Position numbers and translations under genes: made by a program
Shown: positions 31,546 to 64,000 of the stretch, in pieces
How positions within the stretch are numbered: position 1 is the first letter of the stretch
Layout: every line of letters starts with the position of its first letter
NCBI RefSeq assembly: GCF_016026235.1
Contig: NZ_CP065613.1
Length of the DNA: 64,000 nucleotides
Source: Escherichia coli
GTDB lineage: Bacteria > Pseudomonadota > Gammaproteobacteria > Enterobacterales > Enterobacteriaceae
Strand: one strand, 5' to 3'
The notes under the pieces: generated by a model
Told to the model about the DNA's origin: nothing
What the model saw: the letters and a program-made list of their open reading frames with translations, nothing else
Database searches by the model: none

Positions 31546-31923
31546 TGATAGCATAAAGCGATTTTTTGATTTTTCTGCCTGAAGAAATGAGGGCAAGCCA
31601 TCACATGGATCGAGGGTGGGATAATTCCAGTCAGTGAAATTTTACCGTAGGCTATCTGTTATTTGATTCTGTGGCGTGATAGCCGCCAGACACCACTGAA
31701 CTCGTCACTCATTCCCCAATCCCGGCGAGAATGTGGTTATTTACAGAGCTAAAAATGAATAAAAAATAGAGCCTGTCGACATCCGCCAGACTCTACAGTA
31801 CACACAGCAGTGCATCCTCGTCTTAAATCCGGCCTGGGGTCCTTGTGACCGGTGACAGTGTTATAACGGTTTTACCCATCCGTTGCCAATTTTCTTCAGT
31901 GACAGATTTCACGAAAATATAAG

Positions 31924-38703: not shown

Positions 38704-38826
38704 GCAGGTGAATGCAACGTCAAGCGATGGGCGTTGCGCTCCATATTGTCTTACTTCCTTTTTTGAATTACTGCATAGCACAATTGATTCGTACGACGCC
38801 GACTTTGATGAGTCGGCTTTTTTTTG
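38704..38826 (+). ncRNA. fnrS: FNR-regulated small RNA FnrS
   Basis: GCAGGTGAATGCAACGTCAAGCGATGGGCG... ending in GCCGACTTTGATGAGTCGGC hairpin plus T-run; zntB-dbpA intergenic position. Confidence 0.8.
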
Positions 38827-43126: not shown

Positions 43127-43348
43127 TCACGAGGACTGAAGTTTCTCGCAATTAAAATTTATCAGTTTTACTTTCTGCTCTCTGGAAACGCCTGCTTCTT
43201 TTTCCCCTGAGAGCATTTTTTCGCATTCTGATTTCGTTAGTTTTGTCTTTGAGTATCTTGTCCAGCTGGCAGGAGAACCACCTTCCTTTTCAATAGTGGC
43301 TGTAATTTTATACATGAACACCTCCATTAATATTTTCCCAAAATGCAC
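43127..43348 (-). CDS. hypothetical prophage protein (73 aa)
   Basis: ORF in the early-left operon, same strand as neighbours; no recognisable domain. Confidence 0.4.
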   Translation of the reverse strand: MHFGKILMEVFMYKITATIEKEGGSPASWTRYSKTKLTKSECEKMLSGEKEAGVSREQKVKLINFNCEKLQSS

Positions 43349-49212: not shown

Positions 49213-49914
49213 TAATGACATCCTCAAGTGATAAGTTAATTAACTCACCAGCAGAGGTGCTAATCTCATGGGTGGTGAGACGCACAGGGTTAGCACTACC
49301 GGTCACTCGAGAACCCGGCCAGCCTTGCGGCTGCCCCGCACGCCTCACCATAATTTGAATGTGGCTGTGCATTACGCATAAAAAAACCGCTTCAGCGCGG
49401 TTATGCGCTCGAGTAACTTTCGGGGTGCTAATCCCGGCACCCGTTTTATGAGGTGCAGGTGCACTATAATTCCACCCGTTCTGGTTTTCAATAGCTACAT
49501 TCAACATTTTCTCTTTCCTTTCATCACCGAAGTGAATTTTGTGATGCGGTGCCTGGTGCCTCCAGGTGACGTTAACCAGTTAACAATTACAGTCGGCTTT
49601 CCCACCCAAAACAATAAGGACTAACATGACTTTTAACTGTGCCGCGTGCGCTTAGCCGCATTCACCGCATCACAAAATTCACTTTAAAAAGGGCGGACAT
49701 CAGCCAGCAATTAAACCGATGCCGCCAACTGGTACTTCACACAGCAATGTCGTTATTTACAACCGGAAGCGCACTCCCACCATTTAAATTTCACAGACAA
49801 GACCGACTCTTTATGAATACCGGAAATGCGCCTTCGTGTTGTGCCCGGTTTTATTTCACCACCTCCGGGCTTTGGTGGTATCTTTACTGAAGTTCTCACA
49901 CAACCAGTAAGGAA

Positions 49915-52093: not shown

Positions 52094-53242
52094 ATGGCCG
52101 CATTACCATACATGCAACTGTACATAGCTGATTACCTGGCTGACACCATGCATTTGTCAGCAGAGGAGCACGGCGCGTATTTGTTGCTGATGTTCAATTA
52201 CTGGCAAACAGGAAAGCCAATACCCAAAAACAGGTTGGCAAAAATTGCCCGTCTGACTAACGAGCGATGGGTTGATGTTGAACCATCCTTGCGGGAGTTT
52301 TTTTGTGATAACGGCGACGAATGGATGCATCTTCGGATTGAGGAAGATCTGGCATCTGTCAGAGAAAAATTAACCAAAAAATCAGCCGCAGGAAAAGCAT
52401 CTGTTCAGGCCAGAAGAAGCAGAAAGGAAGCAGATGTTCAAACAAAACAAGAGAGAAATTTAACAGGTGTTCAAACAGATGTTGGAGTGATGTTCGAACA
52501 TGATGCCAACACAAAGGCAACTAATAAAGATACAGATAAAGATCTAAAAACAGATCTAACCCATCCCAAACCCTTCCCTTCCGGAAGGGAGTTTCGGGAT
52601 TTTGTGGCTGGAGTGCTTGAGGGGAGATTATCTGGCGGTACTGCAGCGGAATTTTGTAATTCTGCGGTGGTTGCGTTGCAGGCTGCTGGCCTGGATGTCT
52701 GTCGTGAGTATCCGGTGCCAGAGCGTGGTGACGGTTGCGGAGGGCGGATTGATATCGTCGTGACTGACAGGAACGGTGTCCGGTGTGGGATCGAGCTTGA
52801 CCGAAATTCTCCGCGACAGAAATCACTGCTCAAAATCGGTGCTGTTGAAACCGGGATATGTGTCTTGCGGCGCAGTGATATCGCAAGGCACACCGAGCAG
52901 GGAATTCTGGTTATCGGTGGGGCTGTTCGCCAGAAAAAATTTGACCCGTTGTCAGTTGATCTGCCCGACTGGTTGCCAGAAACACTCTGGCATGAGTGGG
53001 TCCAGTTCAGGCAGGCATTGCGAAAACCGATTCGAACGGAGCAGGGCGCTAACGGGGCGATACGGGAACTGGAAAAATTCCGTCAGCAGGGTTTTACACC
53101 TGAGCAGGTGATTCGACACAGCATCGCCAATGAATACCAGGGTCTGTTCGCGCCGAAAGGTGTTCGGCCTGAGACGTTGCTCCGACAGGTTAACACCGTC
53201 TCGTTGCCGGACAGTGCGATCCCGCCAGGCTTCAGGGGGTAA
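52094..53242 (+). CDS. prophage replication protein (YdaU/DUF1376-like)
   Basis: Start at MAALPYMQLYIADYL; precedes the DnaC-like gene. Confidence 0.7.
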   Translation: MAALPYMQLYIADYLADTMHLSAEEHGAYLLLMFNYWQTGKPIPKNRLAKIARLTNERWVDVEPSLREFFCDNGDEWMHLRIEEDLASVREKLTKKSAAGKASVQARRSRKEADVQTKQERNLTGVQTDVGVMFEHDANTKATNKDTDKDLKTDLTHPKPFPSGREFRDFVAGVLEGRLSGGTAAEFCNSAVVALQAAGLDVCREYPVPERGDGCGGRIDIVVTDRNGVRCGIELDRNSPRQKSLLKIGAVETGICVLRRSDIARHTEQGILVIGGAVRQKKFDPLSVDLPDWLPETLWHEWVQFRQALRKPIRTEQGANGAIRELEKFRQQGFTPEQVIRHSIANEYQGLFAPKGVRPETLLRQVNTVSLPDSAIPPGFRG

Positions 53243-53248
53243 CAGACC

Positions 53249-53995
53249 ATGAAAAATATTGCGACAGGAGGCGTTCTGGAGCGTATCCGCAGACTGACCC
53301 CACCACATGTAACCGCCCCATTCAGAACGGTTGCGGAGTGGCGCGAGTGGCAACTTGCTGAAGGCCAGAAACGTTGCGAGGAGATCAACCGCCTGAATCG
53401 TCAGTTGCGGGTGGAAAAAATCCTGAACCGCTCCGGCATCCAGCCGTTGCACCGGAAGTGTTCGTTTGCGAATTACCGGGCGCAGAACGACGGTCAGCGA
53501 CATGCACTGAGTCAGGCGAAATCCATAGCTGACGAACTGATGACAGGCTGTACGAATTTTGTGTTCAGCGGTAAGCCCGGCACCGGAAAAAATCATCTTG
53601 CAGCCGCGATTGGCAACCGGCTGATGGCGAAGGGGCGTAGCGTGATTATCGTCACCGTGTCCGATGTCATGAGCGTGTTGCATGAGAGCTACGACAACGG
53701 CAAATCCGGTGAAAAATTTTTACAGGAGCTTTGTGGTGTTGACCTGCTGGTCCTGGATGAAATTGGCATGCAGCGGGATACGAAAAACGAGCAGGTGGTA
53801 CTGAACCAGATTGTTGATCGCCGGACGGCATCGTTACGCGGTGTGGGGATGCTGACAAATATTAACCATGCAGCGATGAATACACTTCTCGGCGAGCGGG
53901 TGATGGATCGCATGGTCATGAACGGCGGGCGCTGGGTGAATTTTAACTGGGAGAGCTGGCGTCCGAATGTTAGCCATTCGAGGGTTGTTAAGTAG
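53249..53995 (+). CDS. DnaC/IstB-like replication ATPase (YdaV-like)
   Basis: Walker A GKPGTGKNH and Walker B LLVLDEIG. Confidence 0.85.
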   Translation: MKNIATGGVLERIRRLTPPHVTAPFRTVAEWREWQLAEGQKRCEEINRLNRQLRVEKILNRSGIQPLHRKCSFANYRAQNDGQRHALSQAKSIADELMTGCTNFVFSGKPGTGKNHLAAAIGNRLMAKGRSVIIVTVSDVMSVLHESYDNGKSGEKFLQELCGVDLLVLDEIGMQRDTKNEQVVLNQIVDRRTASLRGVGMLTNINHAAMNTLLGERVMDRMVMNGGRWVNFNWESWRPNVSHSRVVK

Positions 53996-57439: not shown

Positions 57440-57804
57440 TGATTAATCGAACCAAACTGGAGCACATTCTCGAATATGCCAGGCAGCAGAAATGTATTGG
57501 GCAACTTTGTAAAATTCCACCAGGAGATATGGTTGAAATCGTGGAAATGGCCATGCGTAAGGCTGGCAACTCTCCGGTAACTCCGGCTGGCTGGATAAGC
57601 TGTAGTGATGCAGTTCCTGCTGAATATTGCGATGTGATTCTTCTCGATGATCTCGGGAATGTATTCCCCGGTTCCTGGGATAAGGTTTTTTGCCCCACTC
57701 GTGGCGGGAATAAGATGGCTTTTGTGGACAAAGACGGCGTTGAAGTAGAGAGCTCAACTCACTGGATGCCGCTACCGGAACCACCGCAGGAGGTGAATCA
57801 ATGA
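57439..57804 (+). CDS. DUF551-like phage protein
   Basis: C-terminal HWMPLPEPP motif typical of this phage family. Confidence 0.6.
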   Translation: MINRTKLEHILEYARQQKCIGQLCKIPPGDMVEIVEMAMRKAGNSPVTPAGWISCSDAVPAEYCDVILLDDLGNVFPGSWDKVFCPTRGGNKMAFVDKDGVEVESSTHWMPLPEPPQEVNQ

Positions 57805-57884
57805 CCTGGCCTGAGGCATTCACCACGGTAGGAATTGCGATGGCGGTGGCGCTGGTGGTGTATTCGATTTGCCGTTGGGGTTAA
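57801..57884 (+). CDS. 27-aa hydrophobic peptide
   Basis: MTWPEAFTTVGIAMAVALVVYSICRWG, ATGA overlap with upstream gene, terminator follows. Confidence 0.3.
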   Translation: MTWPEAFTTVGIAMAVALVVYSICRWG

Positions 57885-57890
57885 CAAACA

Positions 57891-57920
57891 AAAACCCCGG
57901 ATTGATGGTCCGGGGTTTTT
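57891..57920 (+). terminator. rho-independent terminator
   Basis: aaaaccccggattgatggtccggggttttt. Confidence 0.65.
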
Positions 57921-58258
57921 GAAGGAAACAAAACAGAAACAGCAATTGCCGTTACCTGTTGTTACCATGGCAAGTAAACGTATCTCAGGCGAGCGCATTG
58001 CGCCGTTCTGACGCAGATAAACTAGCCTGGATAGATGGTGCTGGCAATAAAAAATAGCGTTTTCTTATCGGTGTCGGTAAGATTGCTGCGGGTGCTTGAG
58101 GCTGTCTGCCTCGGGCATGTCACTGTAAGGCAGACAGAGAAAAGCCCCAGTTAACATTACGCGTCCTGCAAGACGCTTAACATTAATCTGAGGCCCAATC
58201 TATGTCTCACAAATGTAGGTTAGCCTCTTACGTGCCGAAAGGCAAGGAGAAGCAGGCT

Positions 58259-58414
58259 ATGAAGCAGCAAAAGGCGATGTTAATCGCCCTGATCGTCATC
58301 TGTTTAACCGTCATTGTGACGGCACTGGTAACGAGGAAAGACCTCTGCGAGGTACGAATCCGAACCGGCCAGACGGAGGTCGCTGTCTTCGTAGACTACG
58401 AATCTAGAGAGTAA
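58259..58414 (+). CDS. Hok/Gef-family type I toxin
   Basis: MKQQKAMLIALIVICLTVIVTALVTRKDLCEVRIRTGQTEVAVFVDYESRE; aaggag RBS. Confidence 0.8.
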   Translation: MKQQKAMLIALIVICLTVIVTALVTRKDLCEVRIRTGQTEVAVFVDYESRE

Positions 58415-58692
58415 GAGTGACCAGGCGGGAGAGTAATCTCCCGCCACCTTTGATGTGTCAGGCATCCTCAACGCACCCGCACTTAACCCGTTTCGGCGGT
58501 TTTTTTTGTTGCGTGCTGAATACGCAGGGTGAAAAATAACCATATATTTGATTATATACACAACAAAAAATAAAAGTCATTGTACTTGCACATTAAACAA
58601 TCAAATATACGGCGTGAAATAAATGTTTTTCAGATTAATATTTTTGTCTCTATGTGGATATAACCGTTTGTACTTATAAACCTGGAGGCATC

Positions 58693-58905
58693 GTGGAAAA
58701 AATAAAGAAACTATTTAGTAGCAAATACGCAGTCATACGTCGTGATGACCTGTCAGTTATAGTCGAAATGGATTACTTCCCTGAAACCCCAAAATCAATA
58801 ATGTATCGTAATGGTCGAAAGGCAATTTTTTTACCGATGAGGGTAAGTGACATTATGGGAAATGATAAACTGCTGGATGAATTGCGAGTCAGAGCATCCT
58901 GTTAG
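58693..58905 (+). CDS. hypothetical prophage protein (70 aa from GTG)
   Basis: ctggagg RBS before GTG at 58693; no recognised domain. Confidence 0.35.
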   Translation: MEKIKKLFSSKYAVIRRDDLSVIVEMDYFPETPKSIMYRNGRKAIFLPMRVSDIMGNDKLLDELRVRASC

Positions 58906-60417: not shown

Positions 60418-60443
60418 CTCAATCTGTTATCCGGGGCTATATT
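60414..60443 (+). promoter_or_regulatory. pR'-like late promoter
   Basis: TTGACT-18 bp-TATATT immediately after the Q-like stop. Confidence 0.5.
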
Positions 60444-60504
60444 CCTCACGCGCCAGCAAAATCTGGCGTCGGGATTGGCGTCCCGGATGTTTACGGAGCG
60501 ATAT

Positions 60505-60526
60505 GAGACGCGCCCGCGTCTTTTTT
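60505..60526 (+). terminator. tR'-like terminator
   Basis: gacgcgcccgcgtc hairpin plus T6, about 70 bp downstream of the promoter. Confidence 0.55.
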
Positions 60527-60689
60527 CATATCGTTTGCACAGTCTCATTCGCGATTTATGGCGGGCTGTGTGGGGGAGCCGAAAGGCTCGCCGGTTTCCG
60601 TACCCGGTTACGCCAACCCTGCACAGTTCGCCACCAGTTCGATTGGCGTCGTCGGTGGCGATAATTTCCAAATGTACGGAGTTATCGTT

Positions 60690-61455: not shown

Positions 61456-61532
61456 GGCCCTTTAGCTCAGTTGGTCAGAGCGAGCGACTCATAATCGCCA
61501 GGTCGCTGGTTCAAGTCCAGCAAGGGCCACCA
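61456..61532 (+). tRNA. tRNA with anticodon CAT (Ile2/Met type)
   Basis: Manual cloverleaf: GGCCCTT acceptor, loop CTCATAA, T-arm GCTGG/CCAGC, CCA end. Confidence 0.8.
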
Positions 61533-61533
61533 A

Positions 61534-61610
61534 CCACCACTAGCTCATCCGGATAGAGCATCAACCTTCTAAGTTGACGGTGCGAGGTTCGAGTCCTCGG
61601 TGGTGGGCCA
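61534..61610 (+). tRNA. tRNA-Arg (anticodon TCT)
   Basis: Manual cloverleaf: CCACCAC acceptor, loop CTTCTAA, T-arm CGAGG/CCTCG, CCA end. Confidence 0.8.
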
Positions 61611-61612
61611 GC

Positions 61613-61688
<76 letters not shown>

Positions 61689-61691
61689 TAT

Positions 61692-61766
<75 letters not shown>

Positions 61767-63506: not shown

Positions 63507-63970
63507 GCAGAGTCACCGCGATTATCTCCGCTCTGGTTATCTGCATCATCGTCTGCCTGTCATGGGCTGTTAATCATTACCGTGATAACGCCATTACCTA
63601 CAAAGAGCAGCGCGACAAAAACGCAAGAGAACTGAAGCTGGCGAACGCAACCATTACTGACATGCAGCAGCGCCAGCGTTCTGTTGATGCACTCGATGCT
63701 AAATACACGAAGGAGTTAGCTGATGCGAAAGCTGAAAATGATGCTCTTCGGCGCAAGCTTGATAATGGTGGTCGGGTGCTCGTCAAAGGAAAATGCCCTG
63801 TGCCAGCCTCAGCCAAAACCTCCAGCGCCTCCGGCATGGGCAATGATGCCACCGTCGAACTCTCTTCAGTTGCTGGACGAAACGTTCTCGGTATCCGGGA
63901 CGGAATTATCCGCGACCAAACAGCACTGAGAACGCTTCAGGAATACATCAATACGCAATGCCTGAATTAA
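63503..63970 (+). CDS. i-spanin Rz
   Basis: N-terminal TM segment then coiled coil; overlaps the endolysin end. Confidence 0.75.
63723..63929 (+). CDS. o-spanin Rz1 (lipoprotein embedded in Rz in the +1 frame)
   Basis: Lipobox LIMVVGCSS and proline-rich PPAPPAW. Confidence 0.7.
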
Positions 63971-64000
63971 TCCCTCTGTATCAAAAACGAACTCAATTTG

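Follow-up and report, generated by a model that had tools for sequence, protein, structure and literature searches.

The locus at 58078-58507 (~430 nt) of the window, by which we mean the whole 64,000-nt stretch of Escherichia coli DNA analysed here, is very probably a complete hok/mok/sok type I toxin-antitoxin module, judging from its sequence elements, and its assignment to the chromosomal/prophage hokC-hokD-hokW subgroup can be made with the same high confidence. Modules of this kind are already known and widespread, and the present one is apparently intact and ordinary. With RNA ends that were all transferred by homology, it is also likely to be functional, at a somewhat lower level of confidence. 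The original prediction, which was made from the letters of the window, had placed a Hok/Gef-family type I toxin at 58202-58500 in a nin-like prophage region. Both the family and the setting were borne out by the results described below. The interval itself contains the two reading frames and a hairpin but covers only part of the module and is too narrow at both ends. Its start at 58202 leaves out the 112-nt leader and the -10 element of the promoter (58078-58201), and its end at 58500 is the first base of a T8 run, so that the T tract of the terminator is cut off.

The chromosome of E. coli VL40 matched a 501-nt query (58040-58540) with 100% identity, and the same query found hok-related DNA there at three places. 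Of 5426 complete E. coli genomes, 4720 contained related DNA, and in those the number of places had a median of two and a maximum of nine. RefSeq annotates only the 51-aa coding sequence at the locus (WP_000813259.1, 'Hok/Gef family protein'). The genes upstream of hok, all on the plus strand, are ydaT, ydaU, a DnaC-like ATPase gene, DUF977, DUF4406, an Ea22-like gene, DUF4014, HNH, a hypothetical gene and DUF551. Downstream, on the same strand, are a 70-aa ORF, DUF1367 (PHROG 'NinB/Orf'), DUF1364, DUF1133 (Q-like), tRNAs, holin, lysozyme and an Rz-like gene. The hok gene thus sits between the DUF551 gene and the DUF1367/NinB-like gene, upstream of DUF1364, DUF1133, the tRNAs and the lysis genes. 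Because of this plus-strand gene order and the presence of RalA, the antitoxin RNA of RalR in Rac, which an Rfam search located at 43131-43309, the locus is placed in a Rac-like lambdoid prophage of E. coli VL40, in its nin-type region. An enrichment of hok genes in prophages has been documented (bioRxiv 10.1101/2025.08.07.668861). As a separate observation, 51 of 79 loci, phage 933W among them, have a hydrophobic 27-aa ORF ahead of the hok module (57801-57884 in the window), which is conserved between the window and 933W.

The hok toxin gene (58259-58414, plus strand) encodes a 51-aa protein, MKQQKAMLIALIVICLTVIVTALVTRKDLCEVRIRTGQTEVAVFVDYESRE, which is 96% identical to Hok of VT2-Sakai/Sp5. 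Its match to Pfam PF01848 (HOK_GEF, E = 4.3e-23) covers the full 42-position profile, as expected for a Hok/Gef peptide of ~50 aa with an N-terminal hydrophobic helix, and it also matches PHROG 251 'MokW-like host killing' (E = 1.3e-32); the 51-aa protein and a 70-aa form that starts upstream both match PF01848 and PHROG 251. NCBIfam Hok models were matched as well, but under their curated cut-offs (53 bits vs 73). A Shine-Dalgarno sequence (AAGGAG, 58244-58249) precedes the ATG at 58259 by 9 nt and is the first base-for-base conserved stretch that the window has in common with the truncated hokD of K-12.

The Tyr47 codon of hok falls within CUACGAA (58396-58402), a heptamer that tRNA-Arg(ACG) has in its anticodon loop. 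TadA has been reported to edit HokC, HokD and HokE so that Cys takes the place of this Tyr (PMC12214031), and the heptamer in the window is a possible editing site consistent with that report. A tRNA-like presentation of the Tyr47 codon was rejected, as the local minimum free energy (MFE) structure prefers another hairpin, and the identity of the heptamer is kept as a side note only.

The mok reading frame (58202-58414, plus strand) has its own Shine-Dalgarno sequence (GAGG, 58190-58193), 8 nt upstream of the ATG at 58202 and with the same GAGG motif as mok of plasmid R1. It starts upstream of hok, and its 70 codons cover the hok start at the internal ATG (58259), remain in frame with hok and end at the same stop codon, as in mokC/hokC and mokW/hokW. 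Both ORFs are intact, each with its Shine-Dalgarno sequence. The original prediction had correctly recognized the 51-aa ORF and its in-frame extension to the ATG at 58202, but it had regarded this leader as atypical and had been unable to delimit a mok frame. The leader is mok itself, and an equal 19-codon extension occurs in K-12 mokC/hokC and in 933W mokW/hokW. To compare relatives, we aligned 50 distinct full-length sequences from IMG/VR plus reference loci. The mok ATG was conserved in 49 of them and stood in frame with hok, at an offset of 57 nt, in 45. The others comprised two with mok in the +1 frame (68 codons), two with a 19-codon mok frame ending at the hok start and one with ACG in place of the ATG. 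Since the 57-nt in-frame offset is found in so many relatives, the in-frame layout is the norm for the hokC/hokD/hokW subgroup. Only in R1-type plasmid loci is mok out of frame, and in the R1-type locus compared here it is annotated as DUF5431 and starts 97 nt upstream of hok.

Because the mok ATG is in frame, ribosomes that start there must make a Mok-Hok fusion, in the window as in the 45 relatives that share this layout, which raises the question of whether the 70-aa product is a functional, N-terminally extended Hok isoform, beyond a by-product of coupling translation. The extension does keep a conserved RLASYVPKGKEKQA segment. This conserved part, however, overlaps the Sok promoter, the dcb box and the hok Shine-Dalgarno sequence, so that its conservation is explained at the DNA level, whereas codons 2-5 are hypervariable. 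Moreover, hok is intact in the four relatives in which mok is shifted out of the hok frame or has no more than 19 codons. These frame changes agree with the finding for R1 that translation of mok matters and the Mok product does not (PMC9841398). We therefore consider a functional isoform unlikely and regard mok as a frame whose translation would be coupled to that of hok.

The antisense Sok RNA, which the original prediction had expected near the 5′ end but could not delimit, was placed as a candidate gene of ~71 nt on the minus strand, running from 58210 to 58140. Its coordinates were taken over from the 933W sokW annotation (L006 1559-1629, with a 9-nt overlap with mokW), and K-12 sokC has the same geometry. 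The 5′ end would be the G at 58210, which corresponds in position to the 5′ ends annotated for sokW and sokC. The candidate RNA folds with a free energy of -29.2 kcal/mol (z = -5.3) into a 14-nt single-stranded 5′ tail and a long terminator hairpin followed by a U-run. This architecture is kept in 28 sequence variants, and the hairpin is supported by covarying pairs, as are two hairpins of the hok mRNA described below.

The Sok promoter (58217-58245, minus strand) is predicted to consist of a -35 element TTGCCT (58245-58240), a 17-nt spacer and a -10 element TAACCT (58222-58217), and the region from 58214 to 58261, in which it lies, is identical to that of sokW in 933W. Takada et al. mutated the -10 element of sokW, and antitoxin activity was lost (PMC8621323). 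The sequence of their primer YO-421 (AGGTTA to CGGCTC) shows that the mutated hexamer was the TAACCT of the Sok promoter. A consensus promoter/terminator scan of 57850-58750 flagged neither the hok promoter, nor the Sok promoter, nor the hok terminator. The Sok promoter was missed because it matches only 7 of 12 consensus positions, and we did not accept the scan as evidence of absence, since the identical Sok promoter region has been validated experimentally in Sp5. Promoter prediction on the minus strand, which had been suggested as a check, thus failed in the form of a consensus scan, but comparison with sokW located the promoter. The original prediction had also reasoned that the lack of an antisense promoter or RNA fold would point to a decayed locus; we found instead a promoter region identical to that of sokW and the candidate Sok fold given above.

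The other suggested check, a covariance-model search for hok/sok elements, matched the leader to Rfam RF01794 with 118.4 bits (E = 2.4e-26, model positions 1-157; gathering score 59). Besides RF01794, a sub-threshold Rfam search of 57600-58800 returned terminator-driven noise only. RF01794 is named 'sok antitoxin' but matches the hok-sense strand, which is opposite to the annotated sokC in K-12 and to sokW in 933W. A reading of the plus-strand match as a plus-strand antitoxin was rejected because the model hits the strand opposite to annotated sokC in K-12. An RF01794 match should accordingly be read as the hok-sense leader, the complement of which contains Sok, and not as the antitoxin strand.

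The conserved GGGUGC 5′ end follows 7 nt downstream of the putative -10 element of the hok mRNA promoter (TAAGAT, 58078-58083, plus strand), and homology to other loci sets in at this element. At the same alignment position, 933W and Rac have TAGAAT, and K-12 hokC has TATAAT. No convincing -35 element could be recognized upstream of TAAGAT. Homology with hokW and R1 suggests that the full-length hok (mok_hok) mRNA extends over 58090-58507 on the plus strand (~418 nt). Because the block of homology begins at 58090 in nearly all of ~80 loci, just after TAAGAT, and ends at the terminator, the mobile unit is essentially the transcript.

The full-length RNA (58090-58507) has a predicted MFE of -164 kcal/mol, and the segment 58090-58498 adopts a closed 5′-3′ fold with an MFE of -161.6 kcal/mol (z = -5.6 vs shuffles). 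The full-length structure closes with a 12-bp helix between the tac (translational activator) element at the mRNA 5′ end (58090-58101), which is invariant in the 50 relatives, and the fbi (fold-back inhibition) element CCUCAA-C-GCACCC (58466-58478). All 11 tac/fbi pairs are invariant in the 50 sequences, and the helix is therefore conserved without covariation. Next to tac, 5′ leader hairpin 1 (58102-58137) forms a 10+3 bp helix in every fold and occupies the position of the metastable hairpin in R1; its pair 15:47 covaries, being AU in 32 and GC in 18 sequences. The ucb, or anti-SD, box (58142-58150), which takes its named function from the analogy with R1 (PMC9841398), is paired in the full-length fold with the mok Shine-Dalgarno region (58144-58150 with 58188-58194), so that the mok Shine-Dalgarno sequence is sequestered. 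When the leader was folded alone, tac paired instead with ucb (58142-58148), and the same tac/ucb helix is part of the RF01794 consensus. The full-length and leader-only folds correspond to the closed and open forms described for R1. In folds of truncated mRNAs, removal of 47 nt gave the tac/ucb pairing, while removal of 39 nt left tac with a substitute 3′ partner; as the truncation points were arbitrary, these folds are no proof of the switch.

A further hairpin (58190-58227), which contains the mok Shine-Dalgarno sequence and the dcb target, holds the mok AUG in its stem, presents its loop to the Sok tail and is part of the Rfam consensus structure. In isolation it folds at -12.1 kcal/mol, and all 17 of its sequence variants fold at -11.8 to -14.6 kcal/mol, although the MFE structure of the leader favours a shorter local alternative. 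In a fixed-column covariation test on the 50 sequences, 84.7% of the cells were paired, compared with 27-59% in slid controls, but double-sided changes were absent, and shuffles did at least as well. Indels shift the register in the hypervariable stem, and folding of each variant was used in place of this test.

The 3′ UTR contains a 9-bp hairpin with a GUAA loop (58424-58445, GGCGGGAGA-GUAA-UCUCCCGCC). Two of its pairs covary (GC/AU/GU; 8 and 15 double changes), and by analogy with R1 it is probably the protective terminal stem of the processed mRNA. The original prediction had described a 3′ stem-loop followed by a T-run. The stem-loop exists, but only ACCTTTG follows it. The T8 run (58500-58507) lies 55 nt downstream, after fbi and a second, weak 4-bp hairpin (58488-58499), and together with this second hairpin it constitutes the presumed hok mRNA terminator (58488-58507, CCGU-UUCG-GCGG plus T8). 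The terminator hairpin has a free energy of -4.6 kcal/mol, which is not better than that of shuffles, and its stem departs from the family consensus CCCGC-TTCG-GCGGG-T6 by two substitutions. The same terminator variant is found in three other distinct sequences (L026, L032 and L033).

The hokW-mokW-sokW module of 933W/Sp5 (VT2-Sakai) is 93% identical to the window over 58082-58488 (query 43-449). The 933W record lists a mokW of 70 codons and a hokW of 51 codons with the same stop, and a 71-nt sokW on the opposite strand; the window shares the near-identical Hok, the 70-codon in-frame mok, the Sok promoter region and the 71-nt Sok geometry. HokW is toxic, and sokW transcribed from its own promoter neutralises it (Takada et al., PMC8621323). 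The two loci differ in the Sok 5′ tail and mok codons 2-5, where CCCAATCTATGTCTCACAAATG in the window is aligned with CTCAATCCATGCTGAACACATG in 933W, and at the C-terminus of Hok, which is SRE in the window and SEK in HokW. Whereas the window locus is in the nin region, that of 933W is found close to the right-hand end of its phage genome (at 58.4-58.7 kb of 61.7 kb). 933W diverges after fbi and does not have the CCCG..CGG-T run terminator, and upstream of the promoter the window, unlike 933W, contains an insert of ~190 nt that includes a terminator.

The K-12 locus hokC(gef)/mokC/sokC has the same in-frame 19-codon mok extension (57-nt offset, shared stop), its sokC overlaps the mokC start by 9 nt as in the window, and its leader gives the same RF01794 match (118 bits). 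Nucleotide identity to the window is nevertheless only 74%; SokC is 59 nt long, and its hairpin is without the 18-nt extension found in the window. K-12 hokC is flanked by IS186, and it ceases to be homologous to the window within its 3′ UTR, before the position of fbi is reached. The hok/mok/sok (parB) locus of plasmid R1 shows the same regulatory logic and the same elements, namely tac/fbi, ucb, dcb, the GAGG Shine-Dalgarno sequence of mok, the 3′ hairpin and the antisense Sok (PMC9841398), and R1 Hok belongs to the same Pfam family as Hok of the window. HokW and R1 Hok, however, are 44% identical, and the R1-type locus falls below the RF01794 threshold. Because the R1-type locus has an out-of-frame mok at the 97-nt offset and only ~47 nt of detectable DNA similarity to the window, the window locus, as judged by these comparisons, is a member of the same family as R1-type plasmid hok/sok (parB) but of a different subgroup.

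A comparable slot in the cryptic prophage Qin of K-12 is occupied by hokD (relF), which is followed by rem and ydfU, where the window has the small ORF and the DUF1367/NinB-like gene. K-12 hokD is 92% identical to the window over 261 nt, from the hok Shine-Dalgarno sequence to the terminator, but it has no promoter, tac, ucb, mok start or Sok gene, all of which are replaced by relBE. Because K-12 hokD aligns only from the hok Shine-Dalgarno sequence onward, the window holds in full the locus of which Qin keeps a truncated version. K-12 hokD demonstrates that a hok gene behind relBE can persist, and hok in the window points the same way as the early genes on either side; hok might thus be a passenger of the early-right operon of the prophage without antisense control. 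This explanation is very improbable, given that a 13-bp bidirectional terminator (57889-57921), detected in the promoter/terminator scan, separates hok from the upstream genes and that the window has a full leader together with mok and the Sok gene, whereas K-12 hokD keeps only the part from the hok Shine-Dalgarno sequence onward.

The module could also be a decayed or silent relic, in which the elements are recognizable but expression or killing has been lost, as reported for K-12 chromosomal hok loci. The weak, twice-substituted terminator stem and the hok promoter without a recognizable -35 element agree with such a relic, and RefSeq marks ydaU, the replication gene of the host prophage, as a split pseudogene. 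In addition, the chromosomal hokA, hokB and hokC gave no post-segregational killing, according to earlier work as cited in bioRxiv 10.1101/2025.08.07.668861. On the other hand, the two ORFs and their Shine-Dalgarno sequences are preserved, tac and fbi form a perfect helix, the functional sokW has the same promoter region, and the locus with 93% identity to the whole module has been shown to be active. At least three further distinct sequences have the same terminator variant, and nothing is interrupted here, unlike in K-12 hokA, hokC and hokE, which carry IS insertions, or hokD, which has lost its leader. Decay is consequently an improbable explanation, and we favour an intact and functional module.

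The only hypervariable stretch of the transcribed module, the terminator end aside, is a 21-nt patch at 58196-58216, which comprises the Sok 5′ tail and discriminator and also mok codons 1-5. Upstream of the terminator, it has the highest entropy within the transcribed module. Nucleotide diversity in the patch was 0.355, compared with 0.058 at hok third codon positions, and it is six to eight times that of hok synonymous sites. In two genomes with two copies each, the co-resident copies carry different patches. The diversity of the patch and the differences between co-resident copies fit a specificity determinant for Sok recognition. We tentatively suggest, as a possibility that falls short of being probable, that the patch is under diversifying selection and acts as a specificity or 'immunity' determinant that would keep the hok/sok copies of polylysogenic E. 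coli from mutual silencing, with compensatory changes preserving the hairpin.

The sequence elements of the following mechanism are those located in the window, and its steps are modelled on R1 hok/sok and Sp5 hokW-sokW. A weak promoter with its -10 element at 58078 would produce a stable mRNA of ~418 nt. Because tac is paired with fbi and ucb sequesters the mok ribosome-binding site, the full-length RNA would be neither translated nor bound by Sok. Slow 3′ trimming towards the 58424-58445 hairpin would remove fbi, which would allow tac to pair with ucb and expose the mok Shine-Dalgarno/AUG hairpin. Ribosomes starting at the mok start (58202) would then read through the hok start and thereby permit Hok synthesis. 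As long as the short-lived, ~71-nt Sok is made, its 5′ tail would pair with the mok start region and block translation of mok and hence of hok, and the Sok-mRNA duplex would be marked for RNase III. Once Sok synthesis stops, the 51-aa Hok would insert into the inner membrane and kill or permeabilise the cell.

In Sp5, sokW disappears upon prophage induction, HokW appears in the inner membrane, and deletion of the locus halves phage release (PMC8621323). By analogy with hokW-sokW, the leading candidate for the role of the module, which we put forward with some reserve, is that prophage induction serves as the trigger and Hok aids lysis and phage release. Because ydaU is marked as split, the prophage may not be inducible, in which case an induction-linked role may be moot here. 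Stabilisation of the prophage through post-segregational killing is a less probable role, the absence of any role at present is somewhat less probable again, and abortive-infection defence is the most doubtful of the four.

The discovery value of the locus is small, since hok/sok is a textbook type I toxin-antitoxin system whose prophage form, hokW-sokW, has already been characterised and whose enrichment in prophages is on record. Its value lies in annotation: where RefSeq names only the 51-aa coding sequence, the mok frame, the Sok RNA, the mRNA ends and the switch elements can now be positioned with single-base precision. The locus further shows the form that K-12 hokD/relF had before relBE took the place of its leader.

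The match to RalA, the RalR antitoxin RNA of Rac (43131-43309; Rfam, well above the gathering score), together with the ydaT/ydaU genes, identified the prophage that carries the hok module as Rac-like. Its ydaU-family replication initiator is annotated in RefSeq as two incomplete pseudogene pieces (~52479-52991 and 53370-53678) lying ~380 nt apart, and the prophage may be defective. Rfam also detected two C4 antisense RNA/isrK pairs in opposite orientations, one on the minus strand (49268-49456) and one on the plus strand (60437-60638), the latter with a c4-a1b1 target match as well. Downstream of the Q-like gene, the prophage has a tRNA cluster (61456-61766) with the anticodons CAT, TCT (Arg), TGT (Thr) and TCC (Gly); the CAT tRNA is assigned to Ile by RefSeq and to Met by ARAGORN. 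Directly past the lysis genes, a ParD-like/RelE-ParE-family type II toxin-antitoxin pair is annotated from ~63768 to 64000 and beyond the window end, and constitutes a second toxin-antitoxin module of the same prophage. Elsewhere in the window, the sRNA genes McaS (31758-31853) and FnrS (38704-38821) scored well above the gathering threshold.

Upstream of the hok module, a hydrophobic 27-aa ORF (MTWPEAFTTVGIAMAVALVVYSICRWG; 57801-57884, plus strand) overlaps the stop of the DUF551 gene. This ORF is not annotated in RefSeq and had no match in Pfam, PHROG or NCBIfam. Of 79 loci, 51 carry a homolog at a distance of 42-315 nt ahead of the hok module, among them that of the Stx2 phage 933W. Between the ORF and the hok -10 element lies a ~190-nt insert (57885-58077), which is absent from 933W. 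The insert contains a bidirectional terminator hairpin of 13 bp (57889-57921) that, barring antitermination, would keep transcription of the early operon upstream from reaching hok.

The Rfam model RF01794 ('sok antitoxin') matched the hok-sense leader strand, both in the window (58090-58264) and in L003, one of the compared hok loci (602-754). Because this is opposite to the annotated strand of sokC of K-12 and sokW of 933W, the strand of the match should not be taken for the antitoxin strand.

Within hok, the heptamer CUACGAA (58396-58402), which includes the Tyr47 codon (58397-58399), has the same sequence as the E. coli tRNA-Arg(ACG) anticodon loop. Its flanks (UAGA/UCUA) could pair; the local minimum free energy favours another hairpin over the tRNA-like one. 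This context is consistent with the TadA A-to-I editing (Tyr to Cys) reported for HokC, HokD and HokE (PMC12214031).

A hypervariable patch (58196-58216) comprises the 5′ tail of the candidate Sok RNA and mok codons 1-5. Nucleotide diversity was 0.355 in the patch versus 0.058 at hok third codon positions, and folding of the surrounding hairpin was retained in all 17 variants. The patches also differed between hok copies within one genome (two genomes, two copies each). The patch may be a specificity determinant of Sok.
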